Below are positions 12,277 to 29,922 of a stretch of DNA of 32,000 nt, in pieces (positions within the stretch are counted from its first letter, which is position 1; every line of letters begins with the position of its first letter). The stretch is taken from contig NZ_JAGIOS010000001.1 in the NCBI RefSeq assembly GCF_017876815.1, positions 1,020,001 to 1,052,000 of the forward strand, read 5' to 3'. The position numbers and the translations under genes are program-made. The stretch is from Sinorhizobium meliloti (lineage in GTDB: Bacteria; Pseudomonadota; Alphaproteobacteria; Rhizobiales; Rhizobiaceae). The notes under the pieces were generated by a model that saw only the letters and a program-made list of their open reading frames with translations, did not search any database and was not told where the DNA came from.

Positions 12277-12347
12277 GTTGCGTGTCGGTGAAATCGCTCG
12301 GATACCCACAAGCGGACGCTGGCGTAACGCGCACGCCTCCACAAAGC

Positions 12348-12443
12348 TCCTCATTCCTGTGCTCCTTGGGCTGACAGAACGCTTGCCGCGTCACGGACGT
12401 GGCGCTGCCGGATCTCTGTGACAAGCACAGAGAATGAGGGAGG
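12348..12443. repeat. Solo degenerate copy of the A/B hairpin repeat family of the 26.5-29.1 kb array
   Basis: CTCCTCATTCCTGTGCTC|CTTGGGCTG...GGCGCTGCCGGATCTCTGTGACAAGCACAGAGAATGAGGGAGG. Hairpin B variant TCTCTGTG-ACAAG-CACAGAGA at 12413-12433. The distal half of hairpin A is deleted. Confidence 0.8.
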
Positions 12444-12457
12444 AGCGGTTGCGGTCT

Positions 12458-13441
12458 CTAAGCATTCCCTATGACGATGCCGGCGGCAAGAACCAGCCCG
12501 CCACCGAGCACCACCTGGAAGGCGGCCCTCAGGAAGGGCGTTTCCATGTAGCGGTTCTGAATGAAGGCGATTGCCCACAGTTCGAAGAAGACGATTGCCG
12601 CCGCCGTCATTGTCGCGGTCCAGAAATGCGGAATGAGATAGGGCAGAGCGTGGCCGAGACCGCCGAGTGCCGTCATGATGCCCGAGGCAAGCCCGCGCTT
12701 GACCGGCGAGCCGCGGCCGGAAAGCTTGCCGTCATCATGCGCCGCCTCGGTGAAACCCATCGAGATGCCCGCGCCGACGGAGGCCGACAGGCCGACGAGA
12801 AAGGTCTGCCATGTATCCTGCGTGGCGAAGGCTGCGGCGAAGATCGGCGCGAGCGTCGAAACGGAGCCATCCATCAGGCCCGCGAGGCCCGGCTGCACAT
12901 AGGTGAGTATGAACTGGCGGCGTGAGGTCTCATCTTCCTCGTGGCGCACGTCGACCGGCGTATGCTTTTCGCCGAGCCGGCGGGCGAGCGATTCATGCGA
13001 CTTCTCGGCAATCGCCAGATCGCCCAAGAGCTTGCGCGTCGCCGCGTCCCGCGTGCGCGCCGCGGCCTCGACGTAAAACCGGTGCGCCGCCTCCTCCATC
13101 GCCTCGGCTTCCGCGCGCGCCTTCTCGATCGGCATCTCGGCGATCAGCCAATCGGGCTTGCGCTCCGGGAAATCACGCACGTGCTCGCGCCTAACGAGCG
13201 GGATGCGGTTGCCGAAACGGGCGACATGCAGGTCGATCAAGGCCTGACGGTGATGGCTCTCCTCCTCCGCCATTTCCTCGAAGACCCTTGCGGAATGGGG
13301 ATATTTTGCGCGCAGAGCGTCGGCATAGGCGAGATAGATGCGTCCATCGTCCTCTTCCGAGGATATGGCGAGTGCAAGGATTTCCTGTTCGCTCAAGGAC
13401 AGGAACGGGCGTTTGTAACGGGAGAAAAGTCGGGAGAGCAT
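12458..13441 (-). CDS. mbfA: Membrane-bound ferritin-like iron exporter (N-terminal erythrin/rubrerythrin-like domain + C-terminal VIT1/CCC1 domain)
   Basis: N-terminal domain with EExxH-type motifs (EEMAEEESHHRQ, AIAEKSHE). C-terminal TM domain ...GLMDGSVSTLAPIFAAAF...GISMGFTEA... ATG at 13441 is preceded by GAAGG (the track start is the adjacent GTG at 13444). An ICE box lies immediately upstream. Confidence 0.88.
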   Translation of the reverse strand: MLSRLFSRYKRPFLSLSEQEILALAISSEEDDGRIYLAYADALRAKYPHSARVFEEMAEEESHHRQALIDLHVARFGNRIPLVRREHVRDFPERKPDWLIAEMPIEKARAEAEAMEEAAHRFYVEAAARTRDAATRKLLGDLAIAEKSHESLARRLGEKHTPVDVRHEEDETSRRQFILTYVQPGLAGLMDGSVSTLAPIFAAAFATQDTWQTFLVGLSASVGAGISMGFTEAAHDDGKLSGRGSPVKRGLASGIMTALGGLGHALPYLIPHFWTATMTAAAIVFFELWAIAFIQNRYMETPFLRAAFQVVLGGGLVLAAGIVIGNA

Positions 13442-26209: not shown

Positions 26210-26491
26210 ATGAGCGAAAAGCCACGCGTCACCATCCTCTACTGCACCCAGTGCAACTGGCTGCTGCGCGCCGGATGGATGGCGCAGGAATTGCTGTCGA
26301 CCTTCGCCGATACGCTCGGGGAAGTGGCGCTCATCCCCGGGACCGGCGGCAATTTCGAGATTCGCGTCGATGGCGCGTTGATCTGGGAACGCAAGCGCGA
26401 CGGCGGCTTTCCCGGACCTAAGGAGCTGAAACAACGCATTCGCGACGTGATCGAGCCCGAGCGCGATCTCGGCCACACGGACAGGAGCTAG
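26210..26491 (+). CDS. SelT/SelW/SelH (Rdx) family thioredoxin-fold protein, Cys form
   Basis: MSEKPRVTILYCTQCNWLLRAGWMAQELLSTF...FEIRVDGALIWERKRDGGFPGPKELKQRIRD. CxxC (CTQC) sits where selenoprotein members have CxxU. Confidence 0.85.
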   Translation: MSEKPRVTILYCTQCNWLLRAGWMAQELLSTFADTLGEVALIPGTGGNFEIRVDGALIWERKRDGGFPGPKELKQRIRDVIEPERDLGHTDRS

Positions 26492-26544: not shown

Positions 26545-26670
26545 TCAGGAATCCAGCCAGACCAAGTCCTTGGGCTGGAAAGACTCTTCCGCGCCGCAGA
26601 CGCGGCGCTGCTGGATCCCTGTGACGAGCACAGGGATGAGGGTAGAGAGGGTGCGGTCCCTCGGCGCGTT
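26545..26670. repeat. A/B hairpin repeat, 5'-truncated unit abutting the 3' end of the GIY-YIG gene
   Basis: Distal half of hairpin A (TCAGGAATCCAGCC), hairpin C GCGCCGC-AGAC-GCGGCGC (26591-26608), hairpin B ATCCCTGTG-ACGAG-CACAGGGAT (26615-26637), then the linker start GAGGGTAGAGAGGGTGCGGTCCCTCGG. Confidence 0.9.
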
Positions 26671-26961
26671 TCATAAGCCGTGAAGATGGTGAGAGATGTC
26701 TTCCCATTCGGGGTTCAATTCCTCTATCAAATTAAGTTTCCACTTCCTCGGCCATTTCTTCATCGTCTTCTCCCGCGTGATGGCGGAAGTCAGTAGGTCG
26801 AACTCCTCGAACCACACCAAGGTCTTCACGCCGTATCTTGACGTGAATCCAGGCGTCAGATCGTTCTGATGCTCGAGGAGGCGGCGAGGCAGGTCACGGG
26901 TCACGCCCGTATACAGTGTTCCGTTTCGCTTCGATGCGAGAATGTAGACGTAACCTTTCAT
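26671..26961 (-). CDS. Small stand-alone GIY-YIG nuclease family protein (UPF0213/COG2827-like)
   Basis: 96 aa, MKGYVYILASKRNGTLYTGVTRDLPRRLLEHQNDLTPGFTSRYGVKTLVWFEEFDLLTSAITREKTMKKWPRKWKLNLIEELNPEWEDISHHLHGL. The GIY...YxG motifs, conserved Arg and Glu (REK) are all intact. G+C is about 51% by my hand count of 180 nt, clearly below its neighbours. No obvious SD. Confidence 0.85.
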   Translation of the reverse strand: MKGYVYILASKRNGTLYTGVTRDLPRRLLEHQNDLTPGFTSRYGVKTLVWFEEFDLLTSAITREKTMKKWPRKWKLNLIEELNPEWEDISHHLHGL

Positions 26962-27002
26962 TGCGTAACAGGTTGAACATTCCCTCGCGTATTCGCAAGC
27001 GA

Positions 27003-27578
27003 AAGTTGCAGAGGCCGTGCATCCCCGCCTCCCTCATTCCTGTGCCTGTCACAGGAATCCAGCCAGACCAAGTCATTGGGCTGGAAGAACTCTTTCCCGC
27101 GCCGCAGACGCGGCGCTGCTGGATCCCTGTGACGAGCACAGGGATGAGGGTGGAGCGGGTGCGGTCCCTCGGAATACTTCTCGTAGGCCGTGCGGAAGGA
27201 GATGGCGCGCAGTCCCCAAACGAGGTTGCGGCAGCGCCCGTGCATCCCCGCCTCCCTCATTCCTGTGCTCGTCACAGGAATCCAGCCAGGCCAAGTCATT
27301 GGGCTGAAAAGACTCTCCCGCGCCGCAGACGCAGCGCTGCTGGATCCCTGTGACGAGCACAGGGATGAGGGTGGAGAGGGTGCGGTCCCTCGGAATACTT
27401 CTCGTAGGCCGTGCGGAAGGAGATGGCGCGCAGTCCCCAAACGAGGTTGCGGCAGCGCCCGTGCATCCCCGCCTCCCTCATTCCTGTGCTCGTCACAGGA
27501 ATCCAGCCAGGCCAAGTCATTGGGCTGAAAAGACTCTCCCGCGCCGCAGACGCAGCGCTGCTGGATCCCTGTGACGAG
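27003..27578. repeat. Tandem array (~2.6 units, period 221-223 bp) of the A/B/C three-hairpin repeat
   Basis: Hairpin A ATTCCTGTG-CTCGT-CACAGGAAT at 27036, 27259, 27480. Hairpin B ATCCCTGTG-ACGAG-CACAGGGAT at 27123, 27344, 27565 (the last split by the IS). Units 2 and 3 look identical over their shared length. Confidence 0.95.
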
Positions 27579-28843
27579 TGTTTAGCCCGGGGACATGGCG
27601 GACACCTGTTCGGATACATCACTGACGGATTGCTTGTTGGTCAAGTTGATTGTTGCGATGTGATGGGCACCGAAGAAAGCGCCATAGTGGCCGTCGCGGT
27701 CGAGCGGGCGGATGGCGAGGCGTTCTCCGCAGAAAGCTTTGGGAACTTTCCATAGCCGGCCTTTGAAGCTGACATAGGCTTTGGTGGCGGAAACCTTGCG
27801 CACGATCTCGCCCTCGTCATAGACGGGCTCGGGCAGGCGATCCGGCATGGCGCGCGGACTGGGGTGGTAGCGGCTGGCCGGCACGTCATGATCGAGTGCC
27901 CCATGCGGGCGCTCGAAATTGTAAAGCTCGCGCCAGGCATCGAAGGCGCGCTGAACGGCAGCAAGATCCCTGAAACGGTCAAAGGCGAACACCTCGGCCT
28001 TGAGTGTGCGATGGAAGCGTTCATTCTTGCCACGGCTCTGCGGATGGTAGGGGCGACTGTGCAGTAGGGCGACGCCGAGCTTCAGAAGCCATACGCCGAG
28101 GCCGGTCCAGCCCTCGCCTGACGGATCGCCCCATGGCGCGCCATTATCCACGAACATGGCGTCCGGCAGCCCGTAGCGCCGGAATGTCCGCTCCAGATGG
28201 CCGCGTACGGTCGCGCCTCGCTGATCGGCGCAGGCCATGAGACAAGGCACGAAGCGGGAATGGTCATCGATCACCGTCAACGGGTGGCAGAGCGTGGCGT
28301 CGGCCAATTGCACCCAGCCCTTGAAATCCATTTGCCAGAGCTGGTTCGGCGCCTCCTTCTCGAAGCGCTGCAACGCCGGCGCGCCGCCCGGCGGTGCTAC
28401 GATCCGATCATGGCGCTTGAGGATGGCATGAACGGTCGAAACCGCCGGCGGGTGGGTTCCCTGCCGTTCCAGATAGCCCACAATTTTGCGCGCCCCCCAT
28501 GCCGGATGCGCATCGCGCACCCCAAGCACCTCGGTCTCTACCGCTTCGTTGCAACGCATCGGACTTATATGCGGGCGCCGTGAGCGATCCGCCAACTCGC
28601 GGTCGCCGGCTTCCCACCGCGCCAGCCATTTATAACCGATATCCGGGCTGATCCCGAACCGCCGGCACAATTCCCGCCGGTTCACACCCTCCTCAAGCGC
28701 AAGTCGCACAAACTCCCGCCGCTCTCCCATCGTCGATACCTCTCGCCACGGCATGGAATACCCCCTTCGAAGCCAAATCCATGCCAGTATGACGTGTCAG
28801 CCATCTCCCCGAACACCCGTCAGTTATGTCCCCGGGCTAAACA
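27579..28843 (-). mobile_element. IS481-family insertion sequence, apparently intact (1265 bp)
   Basis: Perfect 18-bp terminal inverted repeats TGTTTAGCCCGGGGACAT (27579-27596) / ATGTCCCCGGGCTAAACA (28826-28843). 5-bp direct duplication ACGAG at 27574-27578 and 28844-28848. A single DDE transposase ORF fills the element. Confidence 0.92.
27582..28754 (-). CDS. IS481-family DDE transposase (HTH + rve integrase core)
   Basis: 390 aa, MPWREVSTMGERREFVRLALEEGVNRRELCRRFGISPDIGYKWLARW...WQMDFKG...VIDDHSR...VDNGAPW...SRPYHPQSRGKNERFHRTLK... The stop codon lies inside the left IR. Confidence 0.93.
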   Translation of the reverse strand: MPWREVSTMGERREFVRLALEEGVNRRELCRRFGISPDIGYKWLARWEAGDRELADRSRRPHISPMRCNEAVETEVLGVRDAHPAWGARKIVGYLERQGTHPPAVSTVHAILKRHDRIVAPPGGAPALQRFEKEAPNQLWQMDFKGWVQLADATLCHPLTVIDDHSRFVPCLMACADQRGATVRGHLERTFRRYGLPDAMFVDNGAPWGDPSGEGWTGLGVWLLKLGVALLHSRPYHPQSRGKNERFHRTLKAEVFAFDRFRDLAAVQRAFDAWRELYNFERPHGALDHDVPASRYHPSPRAMPDRLPEPVYDEGEIVRKVSATKAYVSFKGRLWKVPKAFCGERLAIRPLDRDGHYGAFFGAHHIATINLTNKQSVSDVSEQVSAMSPG

Positions 28844-29072
28844 ACGAGCACAGGGATGAGGGTGGAGAGGGTGCGGTCCCTCAGAATACTTCTCATGGGT
28901 GCGCGGATGTCGAGGACCCAGTCCCCAAGCGAAGGTGCCGTAACGCCCGTGCCCTGCCTCCCTCATTCCTGTGCTCGTCACAGGAATCCAGCCAGGCCAA
29001 GTCATTGGGCTGAAAAGACTCTTCCGCGCCGCAGATGCGGCGCTGCCGGATCCCTGTGACGAGCACATGAGG
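28844..29072. repeat. A/B hairpin repeat, final more diverged unit after the IS
   Basis: Right half of the split hairpin B (CACAGGGAT, 28849-28857), a diverged linker, hairpin A at 28965-28987, hairpin C, and a decayed terminal hairpin B (ATCCCTGTGACGAGCACATGA from 29050). Confidence 0.9.
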
Positions 29073-29088
29073 AAGAGGGCAACATGCC

Positions 29089-29715
29089 TCAGCTATGCGC
29101 GAAGATGTCCGCCTCTTCCCAGCCGAGCAGATCGAGCTTGGCACGCGTGGGGAGAAACGAGAAGCAGGCCTCGGCGAGTTCCATCCGGCCATCGCGCAGG
29201 AGCCGCGCCGTCAGCTTGTCGCGCAGCGCATGCAGGTGGAGCACGTCGGAGGCGGCATATTCGAGCTGCGCCGGCGAAAGAATGTCGGCGGCCCAATCGG
29301 AAGACTGCTGCTGCTTGGAAATGTCGATGTCGAGCAGTTCCTTGAGATTGTCCTTGAGACCGTGCCGGTCCGTATAGGTGCGGGCGAGGCGCGAGGCGAT
29401 CTTGGTGCAGAAGACCGGCGACGCGGTGACGCCGAAGGTATGGAACAGCACGGCGATGTCGAAGCGGCCGAAATGGAAGATCTTCTGGCGCGTCGGATCG
29501 GCGAGCATCGAGACGAGGTTCGGCGCCTGCTTCTGGCCGGCGGAGATGCGGATCACATCGGCAGTCCCGTCGCCGGACGAGAGCTGCACGACGCAAAGGC
29601 GGTCGCGACGCGGGACCAGGCCGAGCGTTTCCGTATCGATCGCGATCGCGCCCGTATAGCGGGCGGCGTCGGTCTCGGAAATGTCGCCCTCGTGGAACCT
29701 TATTGTATTCGCCAT
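29089..29715 (-). CDS. RNase D-like 3'-5' exonuclease (DEDDy family, short form)
   Basis: 208 aa, MANTIRFHEGDISETDAARYTGAIAIDTETLGL (DxE)...HFGRFDIAVL...EYAASDVLHL (Yx3D). Trimmed to the ATG at 29715. Confidence 0.88.
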   Translation of the reverse strand: MANTIRFHEGDISETDAARYTGAIAIDTETLGLVPRRDRLCVVQLSSGDGTADVIRISAGQKQAPNLVSMLADPTRQKIFHFGRFDIAVLFHTFGVTASPVFCTKIASRLARTYTDRHGLKDNLKELLDIDISKQQQSSDWAADILSPAQLEYAASDVLHLHALRDKLTARLLRDGRMELAEACFSFLPTRAKLDLLGWEEADIFAHS

Positions 29716-29922
29716 CGAAAATCCCCAGATCGTTACTTGCATGTTTCCCTGAGAACGGCTCAGGAAGCCTGCTGAGATTCAAGTGCTGCAGCGATCCCGG
29801 CCTGTCTGATCAGGCTCGCGGGCGCTGTGGAGCGTAGCTGGCCTATAGCGCATGTTGGCCGGCCGCGATACCTTGTCCTTCGGCGGACGTTCCGTTTGCC
29901 GGCACCCCGAGAAAGTTCGTAT

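Follow-up and report, generated by a model that had tools for sequence, protein, structure and literature searches.

The spacer between the Rdx gene and an RNase D-like gene on the Sinorhizobium meliloti chromosome holds an array of hairpin repeats around one small nuclease gene, and we read it, with a probability of roughly 0.8, as an Ssn/SRM locus in which an ssnA homolog and its cognate hairpins make up a recombining mosaic array of the BIME, NIME and RIME kind. The window that was analysed is a 32,000-nt stretch of this chromosome, and the repeat spacer occupies window positions 26546-29072. Ssn is a family of ~94-aa single-domain GIY-YIG site-specific nucleases of single-stranded DNA (ssDNA), described by Chenal et al. 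2025 (cd10448; PMC11893778). SsnA of Neisseria meningitidis binds to the NTS hairpin CGTCATTCCCGCGMAVGCGGGAATCYRG exclusively in ssDNA, cleaving a few nucleotides upstream of it, and 71% of Ssn homolog genes have related flanking motifs (Ssn-related motifs, SRMs; PMC11893778). The same authors remark on the look of NTS-ssnA-NTS, which resembles an insertion sequence (IS), and draw the analogy with RAYT/REP/BIME systems (PMC11893778). A preliminary description of the window had made the RAYT/REP comparison, which was apt (a gene between inverted, genome-abundant hairpins, and an analogy already in print; PMC11893778). It had also taken the association to be undescribed, a claim that is out of date because the Ssn family, its SRM hairpins and the NTS-ssnA-NTS layout had been published (PMC11893778). 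The window locus is an S. meliloti example of this known nuclease/hairpin-repeat system, with a variant motif. What is new here is modest: a hairpin that escapes the published motif, two gene polarities, and ssnA cassettes in relatives from which the open reading frame (ORF) has been deleted. Rhizobia are not mentioned in the main text of the Ssn paper (PMC11893778), Sinorhizobium is outside the scope of the study of CGTC-tagged REPs by Di Nocera 2013, and a literature search on GIY-YIG with rhizobia or intergenic repeats, or with RAYT or MITE, found nothing relevant.

The nuclease gene is intact, as had been described. Its 96-aa ORF (26671-26961, minus strand) matches the Pfam GIY-YIG domain PF01541 over residues 2-77 (E=1.4e-15), with no other domain, and its similarity to Neisseria SsnA is high: against the 94-aa N. 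gonorrhoeae homolog (locus L092) it shows 58% identity over 89 aa (E=4e-36). Y6, Y17 and E64, the residues mutated in the SsnA study (PMC11893778), are aligned and identical in the two proteins, and the length and residue numbering of the N. gonorrhoeae homolog agree with those of the published N. meningitidis mutants. Homologs are numerous (6907), and strain 1021 (AL591688.1) and many other strains have a gene for exactly the same 96-aa protein, likewise flanked by Rdx and RNase D. The low G+C noted earlier (about 51% against more than 60% around) was measured at 51.9% for the ORF against 63.4% for the window. A PDB sequence search with the protein gave only weak UPF0213 matches (E about 4e-4), the PADLOC defence models had no match, and an Rfam scan of the whole window at gathering thresholds returned no family.

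Among 80 loci with close ssnA homologs from other Rhizobiaceae species, the CCTGTG...CACAGG hairpin was counted 138 times at no more than 350 bp from the gene (2.53 per kb), compared with 51 in the remaining 1.3 Mb (0.039 per kb), a 65-fold enrichment that bears out the earlier suggestion of GIY-YIG genes paired with hairpins of this type. The TGTG type is present in 56/80 loci, typically ~90 nt upstream and 40-55 nt downstream of ssnA. In the other 24 loci a general hairpin search found, in all except L049, a co-varying hairpin that keeps the flanks and has a compensating stem, either ccgtc-ATGCCGGA...TCCGGCAT-ccagc or ccctc-ATTACCGGG...CCCGGTAAT-ccagc, so that a flanking hairpin is found in 79 of the 80 homologous loci. 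In addition, protein-tree clades coincide with the stem and tag type of the hairpin. On this comparative sequence evidence, ssnA and its A/B hairpins are a genuine conserved cognate pair. Paralogs in Rhizobium sp. Leaf453 (L020/L066) and in isolate AFS094519 (L046/L055) fall in different protein clades, each with its own hairpin type (a TGTG stem with a CGTC tag versus a TACCG stem with a CCTC tag), and two cognate ssnA/hairpin systems appear to coexist in one genome. Pararhizobium sp. DWP3-4 (L021 9330-9617 and 10001-10288) has two full-length ssnA genes in tandem, ~380 bp apart.

The layout of these arrays is shared as well. In Neisseria, the locus reads ctgg-hairpin-gacg > gene > cgtc-hairpin-ccgg and lies inside an alternating-repeat array, with the same polarity as in the window, where ssnA is flanked on its 5' and 3' sides by oriented hairpins (26610-26642 and 27031-27063). 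Two gene polarities occur: in the window, Neisseria and most loci, ssnA stands on the tag (gaggg/ccctc) side of both hairpins, and in some Rhizobium and Neorhizobium lineages it stands on their ccagc side. Plus- and minus-strand hairpins alternate along the arrays, with two spacer classes between them. Gene-free ccagc...gctgg spacers are tight (56-94 nt) in all loci and often hold a GC-rich hairpin like hairpin C of the window, such hairpins occurring at the equivalent place in other genera; tag-side gaggg...ccctc compartments range from 55 to 401 nt, and they hold ssnA in 42 cases, against 11 in the other class. The hairpin motif is also abundant genome-wide: among the matches listed, there are 17-37 matching places per S. 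meliloti replicon (at least this many in 13 records).

Within the window, the array follows this grammar. The Rdx gene ends at 26491, the DNA_pol_A_exo1/RNase D-like gene occupies 29089-29742 (minus strand), and the features between them are as follows.

26546..26555, plus strand: collapsed remnant of the first hairpin, A0 (CCTCA/GGAAT; an intact CCTCATTCCTGTGCCTGTCACAGGAAT stands at the matching place in strain Ak57)
26591..26608, no strand: hairpin C0 (GCGCCGCAGACGCGGCGC) within a ccagc...gctgg spacer (pattern match)
26610..26642, minus strand: SRM-like hairpin B0, minus strand CCCTC-ATCCCTGTG-CTCGT-CACAGGGAT-CCAGC (ssDNA fold -9.2 kcal/mol, z=-4.2)
26643..26670, minus strand: 3' flank of the ssnA cassette (hairpin-side stretch common to the short linkers)
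26671..26961, minus strand: ssnA homolog, 96-aa single-domain GIY-YIG nuclease (Pfam PF01541 and SsnA similarity)
26962..27030, minus strand: 5' flank and untranslated region (UTR) of the ssnA cassette (outer ~31 nt common to the short linkers; the UTR recurs without the ORF in relatives)
27031..27063, plus strand: SRM-like hairpin A1, CCCTC-ATTCCTGTG-CCTGT-CACAGGAAT-CCAGC (pattern match)
27099..27116, no strand: hairpin C1 (pattern match)
27118..27150, minus strand: SRM-like hairpin B1 (pattern match)
27151..27253, no strand: gene-less linker L2 between B1 and A2 (113 nt core to core, 27146-27258; both edges match the cassette)
27254..27286, plus strand: SRM-like hairpin A2 (folds at -8.1 kcal/mol, z=-4.95)
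27320..27337, no strand: hairpin C2, with one mismatch (fold no better than shuffles)
27339..27371, minus strand: SRM-like hairpin B2 (pattern match)
27372..27474, no strand: short linker L3, tandem copy of L2 (units 99% identical)
27475..27507, plus strand: SRM-like hairpin A3 (pattern match)
27541..27558, no strand: hairpin C3 (pattern match)
27560..27578, minus strand: left part of hairpin B3, interrupted by the IS (27578 is the last position of its left arm and loop)
27579..28843, minus strand: ISRm20, IS481-like, 1265 bp, with a 390-aa transposase, in the B3 loop (rve/HTH Pfam matches; annotated as ISRm20 in CP090106.1)
28844..28862, minus strand: remaining part of hairpin B3, beyond the IS (continues with the right arm from 28844)
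28863..28959, no strand: L4, a short linker that has diverged (28858-28964, 107 nt from core to core; matches the Ak57 linker Lb)
28960..28992, plus strand: SRM-like hairpin A4 (pattern match)
29026..29043, no strand: hairpin C4 (pattern match)
29045..29072, minus strand: degenerate terminal hairpin B4 (GCCGGATCCCTGTGACGAGCACATGAGG)

The pattern ATYCCTGTG-N5-CACAGGRAT has seven matches in the window, all inside the Rdx-RNase D spacer, and none in 100 shuffles. They start at 27036, 27259, 27480 and 28965 (A) and at 26615, 27123 and 27344 (B). All the A positions previously given, and these three for B, therefore stand as described; of the other two, B at 27565 is split by the IS and B at 29050 is degenerate. 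With their flanks, A and B form 45-nt inverted repeats that are 87% complementary, inverted counterparts as had been stated, and they can be written as one oriented motif on opposite strands, C(C/G)TC-ATYCCTGTG-N5-CACAGGRAT-CCAG, with ATTCC and ATCCC sub-variants alternating along the array. The S. meliloti hairpin reads CCCTC-ATTCCTGTG-CTCGT-CACAGGAAT-CCAGC. Hairpin C (GCGCCGCAGAYGCRGCGC) does occur in each unit: its five copies start at 26591, 27099, 27320, 27541 and 29026, with a mismatch in those of units 2 and 3. The 221-bp tandem repeat was recovered by TRF (period 221, 2.6 copies, 96% matches, 27008-27578), and the two units that had been called identical (27092-27312 and 27313-27533) are nearly but not fully so, at 99%. 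Folded as separate hairpins, the A-C-B module gives -8.1 and -9.2 kcal/mol (z about -4 to -5), while A2-C2-B2 (27254-27371) may alternatively form one REPIN-like 118-nt hairpin of -46.6 kcal/mol (z=-9.7). The collapsed A0 at 26546-26555 and the identity of the IS as ISRm20 are absent from the preliminary description; the A0 palindrome core, 17 nt, has been lost neatly in the window as judged against Ak57 (L096 2867-2898). A sigma-70 promoter scan of the array found none, and weak terminator-like matches in the array fall only at hairpin C, on the minus strand. There, hairpin C followed by AGAGTCTTTT has a terminator-like score (27317-27329 and 27538-27550; also at C0 and C4); lying downstream of both ssnA and the RNase D gene, it could terminate both transcripts.

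The origin of the gene-less linkers is less uniform than had been proposed. Both edges of the gene cassette align with the short linker: 26638-26664 matches 27146-27172 over 27 nt with 2 mismatches, and at the 5' edge ~31 nt match before hairpin A. This much of the proposed homology holds; its extension into the ORF end is weak, with p=0.28 for a local alignment of the 52-nt linker filler against the whole cassette interior, p=0.03 for a local alignment against the collinear 80 nt of the cassette, and p about 0.004 for a global alignment against the collinear 48 nt of the ORF end. Given so marginal a similarity of the filler to the ORF end, a simple deletion of ~290 bp is not supported for the window's own linker. 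A blastn search with the 52-60-nt linker filler against all fetched loci matched only S. meliloti and L012. A reading of the linker-encoded peptide (…WGLRAISFRTAY) as an Ssn C-terminus was tried and dropped, the comparison with Ssn C-termini being unconvincing.

Clear relics of the cassette do exist in close relatives. On the megaplasmid of S. meliloti LMB1, the unit L094 is the cassette minus exactly the ORF, with boundaries no more than 2 nt from the start and stop codons and a junction between two ATGAAA repeats that overlap these codons. Units L093 and L095 retain 7 nt of the ORF start and the last 12 nt, L098, L099 and L100 retain partial ORFs (~85-100 nt of the 5' ORF among the relics), and L011 and L014 retain the upstream region and the first 11 codons, joined to sequence just past the downstream hairpin. 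In L011 (3769-3801 and 4298-4330) and L014 (10993-11025), ssnA codon 11-12 is joined directly to GAGGTGCGGATGG, the sequence that follows the downstream hairpin in the full unit, which would place the junction at or near the predicted Ssn nick site; as a single type of event, this is suggestive. The ssnA 5' UTR recurs at 13 places in the chromosome of Sinorhizobium sp. K101, compared with 4 genes, and also on megaplasmids without ssnA. Among gene-less tag-side compartments, 6/46 match ssnA cassettes, compared with 0/46 reversed controls. Relics are thus real but a minority, and the short linkers that share the outer 27-31 nt of the cassette are probably decayed cassettes. The junctions of the clear relics differ between loci, and the sole shared one (L099/L100) lies at an orthologous locus. 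The idea that short units are deleted cassettes survives in this form, and the differing junctions fit repeated decay in place with local duplication better than the spread of a single MITE.

Comparison between strains shows that the array varies in gene content and unit number, as had been anticipated. In strain Ak57 (CP090106.1), the Rdx-RNase D spacer has no ssnA and no IS, only two short-linker units; its ssnA, 97.9% identical, sits between mazG and hflX and is followed by the same short units as in the window, so that Ak57 carries the short linker type in two separate arrays. Relative to Ak57, the window has in addition a ~501-bp gene-bearing unit, one 221-bp unit and ISRm20. Among other S. 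meliloti strains the difference amounts to a single 221-bp unit. In K101, where Rdx and RNase D are about 99% identical, the spacer is an unrelated 155 bp with no SRM-like hairpins. That spacer (L101 ~500-585) holds a different palindrome, GAGCATTTCAGTGTTTC-TAT-GAAACATTGAAATGCTC, which may be another repeat family. Only 1/80 foreign loci (L012) shares synteny with the window. In this locus, from Ensifer sp. USDA 6670 (L012 10289-10345), the 3' flank of the cassette abuts the end of Rdx, and B0, C0 and A0 are missing. No target-site duplications are visible around individual units, which abut via common modules. Every one of these strain differences has both its boundaries in repeated modules, so that homologous recombination is enough to account for them. 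The PLSDB records used here (CP090106.1, NZ_CP104131.1, NZ_CP104127.1 and NZ_CP104135.1) are 3.5-3.7 Mb and carry plasmid labels (pSymB, pK101a and others); two of them are evidently chromosomes, to judge from their housekeeping genes, which are lepA, hfq and hflX in CP090106.1, and Rdx and RNase D both there and in NZ_CP104131.1. The records of M103 and C101 hardly differ in size or in matches.

The preliminary description had recognised a later IS in the array, and this is ISRm20 at 27579-28843, which splits the loop of B3 and has 16-bp terminal repeats and a 5-bp ACGAG duplication. It would be a later insertion aimed at the hairpin loop. All four copies that we compared (the window, two on pSymB and one elsewhere in the Ak57 chromosome; L102, L103, L104) sit at gctggATCCCTGTG-ACRAG/IS/ACRAG-CACAGGGATga with a 5-bp duplication, and ISRm20 appears to be site- and orientation-specific for the loop of the SRM-like hairpin. 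The accessible part of Tobes and Pareja 2006 names ISRm22 and ISRm19 as targeting REPs in S. meliloti and does not name ISRm20 (PMC1525189). In one S. meliloti strain (GCA_054089845.1, L004 5781-8696), the ISRm20 copy of this locus is itself interrupted, leaving an rve gene of only 217 aa, and it adjoins a 687-aa serine recombinase gene and a 65-aa ORF.

Taken as an Ssn/SRM locus, the array could work as follows. Hairpins A and B would be the Rhizobiaceae version of the SRM, the counterpart of the Neisseria NTS, and REPIN-like doublets (an SRM, 62 nt with hairpin C, and an inverted SRM) would alternate with tag-side compartments holding either ssnA or short linkers. By analogy with Neisseria SsnA, the protein may bind the folded hairpin in ssDNA only and nick a few nucleotides 5' of the CCTC tag. 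In the polarity of the window, the gene/linker compartment is predicted to receive two nicks, one near either end and each on a different strand, which could explain why this compartment is the variable one. Homologous recombination between the ~108-bp doublets, perhaps promoted by Ssn nicks, would let the array grow, shrink and exchange its gene unit. More speculatively, nicks might promote gene conversion between arrays and a homing-like spread of the cassette. Candidate roles in S. meliloti include control of incoming ssDNA (in conjugation or transduction), hairpin processing and selfish persistence.

Several observations weigh against this reading. The published SRM string HGTCWYN(0-2)YYVSBRHN(0-5)WNVSBRGN(0-2)RNCYNB has no match in the window, even when relaxed to HSTC, and in neither its strict nor its relaxed form does it match any Rhizobiaceae hairpin, while the Neisseria NTS, as a positive control, does match. 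The string misses these hairpins because of their TGTG stem and, in Sinorhizobium, their CCTC tag; it is a hand-made search aid of its authors, and a miss points to a variant of the motif, not to a place outside the family. In addition, the S. meliloti tag is CCTC and not CGTC, and it differs in bases that control cleavage in Neisseria, where the three bases upstream of the palindrome governed cutting (PMC11893778). Cleavage of ssDNA by the rhizobial enzyme is proposed by analogy with Neisseria SsnA. An NCBIfam scan gave no match above cutoff (the only one below it was TIGR01453, at 20.5 vs 56 bits). Within the array, the window's filler resembles the ORF end only marginally at the sequence level, other linker variants (L4 and the Ak57 linker Lb) compare with the ORF end at p about 0.24, and 40/46 gene-less linkers have no detectable homology to a cassette. 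Finally, S. meliloti is not known to be naturally transformable, so the transformation role of the Neisseria system may not carry over.

Part of the evidence would also suit an autonomous mobile element, in which a hairpin-bounded ssnA cassette moves and the gene-less units or doublets are MITE- or REPIN-like derivatives cut and moved in trans by the GIY-YIG nuclease, a reading that we consider unlikely. The gene does stand in unrelated contexts in 79/80 loci, two S. meliloti strains carry it in different spacers, it can be multi-copy (four places in K101, the tandem pair of L021), its G+C lies 8-11 points under that of its surroundings, and in many draft assemblies it is at a contig end. Hairpins far outnumber genes and are present on pSymB, which is without ssnA; the 5' UTR exceeds the gene in number in the K101 chromosome; one short linker type occurs in both Ak57 arrays; and the IS-like layout was remarked by Chenal et al. 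(PMC11893778). On the other hand, neither target-site duplications nor discrete ends of an element were seen, the modules are common and head-to-tail, and homologous recombination explains each observed gain and loss. Relic junctions vary, and the shared one is orthologous, which points to decay in place. Ssn is known only for cutting ssDNA, with no known joining activity, the two predicted nicks fall on opposite strands, unlike those of IS200/IS605, and the protein is 80-90% identical across genera, suggesting long-term selection at the level of the host. A simple MITE reading was set aside on the absence of target duplications and the differing relic junctions, and the earlier proposal of the nuclease as the mobilising enzyme, for which neither target-site duplications nor a transposase were found in the array's units, stays conjectural.

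The opposite order of events, with the repeats first, the ssnA ORF homing into an existing linker and ORF-less units such as L094 as empty sites, had been called equally open, and we judge it quite improbable. While the ORF is exactly what sets L094 apart from the window cassette, the low G+C of the gene suggests a foreign origin, and the gene occurs in either compartment type, the ORF is bracketed by a 6-nt ATGAAA direct repeat (at the start codon and over the stop codon), from which slippage deletion predicts the L094 junction. Relics with internal pieces of the ORF (7+12 nt, 11 codons, ~85-100 nt) can be produced by deletion only, and the hairpin-gene-hairpin layout, being common to Neisseria, is ancient. 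Nor can a chance neighbourhood be taken seriously, in which palindromic repeats pile up in convergent spacers and a small gene stands among them by accident: palindromic repeats do cluster between convergent genes and attract IS elements in S. meliloti (PMC1525189), but chance adjacency is excluded by the 65-fold enrichment over 80 loci, the 79 positive loci and a hairpin type that follows the protein clade even for paralogs.

A bolder extension of the Ssn/SRM reading seems doubtful to us: that array linkers in general are decayed ssnA cassettes, and that Ssn/SRM is a present or recent self-propagating element, spreading by nick-stimulated, homing-like conversion while ORF-less units keep duplicating. 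If true, it would mean that a GIY-YIG ssDNA nuclease drives a REP-like repeat family, a role known so far only for HUH tyrosine transposases.

Among known systems, the closest is Neisseria Ssn/NTS, with which the window locus shares a single-domain GIY-YIG protein of ~94 aa with the catalytic residues kept, a hairpin on both sides of the gene with flanks C-TC-ATTCC...GGAAT-CCAG and equal polarity, and an alternating-repeat array whose repeats are far more numerous than the genes. It differs in its stem (TGTG/CACA in S. meliloti vs CGCG) and tag (CCTC vs CGTC), and in the second gene polarity of some Rhizobium and Neorhizobium lineages. Like RAYT/REP/REPIN systems, it has a low- or single-copy nuclease gene between inverted copies of a genome-wide hairpin repeat, inverted doublets foldable as one long hairpin and, by analogy, a putative recognition of hairpins in ssDNA; unlike them, its enzyme has GIY-YIG as the sole domain found and is not a Y1 HUH (IS200/IS605-like) transposase, no GTAG tag stands at the window hairpins, and Ssn has no known counterpart to the joining activity of those enzymes. 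The BIMEs of E. coli, the NIMEs of Neisseria and the RIMEs, Sm-repeats and AB/C palindromes of S. meliloti 1021 are likewise intergenic mosaics of opposite palindromes with two spacer classes, and the arrays of this type also share two alternating palindrome sub-variants (here ATTCC and ATCCC) and serve as IS targets. Hairpins A, B and C are likely the AB/C palindromes annotated in S. meliloti 1021. With MITE/IS pairs, the locus shares its 45-nt inverted ends, short and gene-bearing units with both ends in common, and internally deleted copies, whereas no transposase belongs to the unit, target-site duplications are missing, the units form tandem chains and not single insertions, and the deletions look independent. 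GIY-YIG homing endonucleases of the I-TevI type have the same catalytic fold, and a homing-like copying of cassettes into arrays is conceivable, but the window protein is without a DNA-binding domain and lies in a chromosomal intergenic spacer, with no intron, intein or phage context.

As a side observation, a small CcdA antitoxin gene beside lepA is 77 aa, 91 aa or uncalled among S. meliloti strains (L001-L010, ~12307-12582).

For S. meliloti and the Rhizobiaceae, these results tie intergenic palindromes that have long been annotated and unexplained to a defined enzyme family. For the Ssn family, they indicate that the published SRM motif undercounts its members, as it misses all the Rhizobiaceae hairpins considered here, yet nearly every gene is flanked by one. 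The ORF-deleted cassettes, the two polarities and the paralogs with their own hairpins provide material for the question of whether Ssn is a domesticated tool or a selfish element (PMC11893778), and each cognate pair of protein and hairpin is a candidate new specificity for ssDNA-cutting tools.

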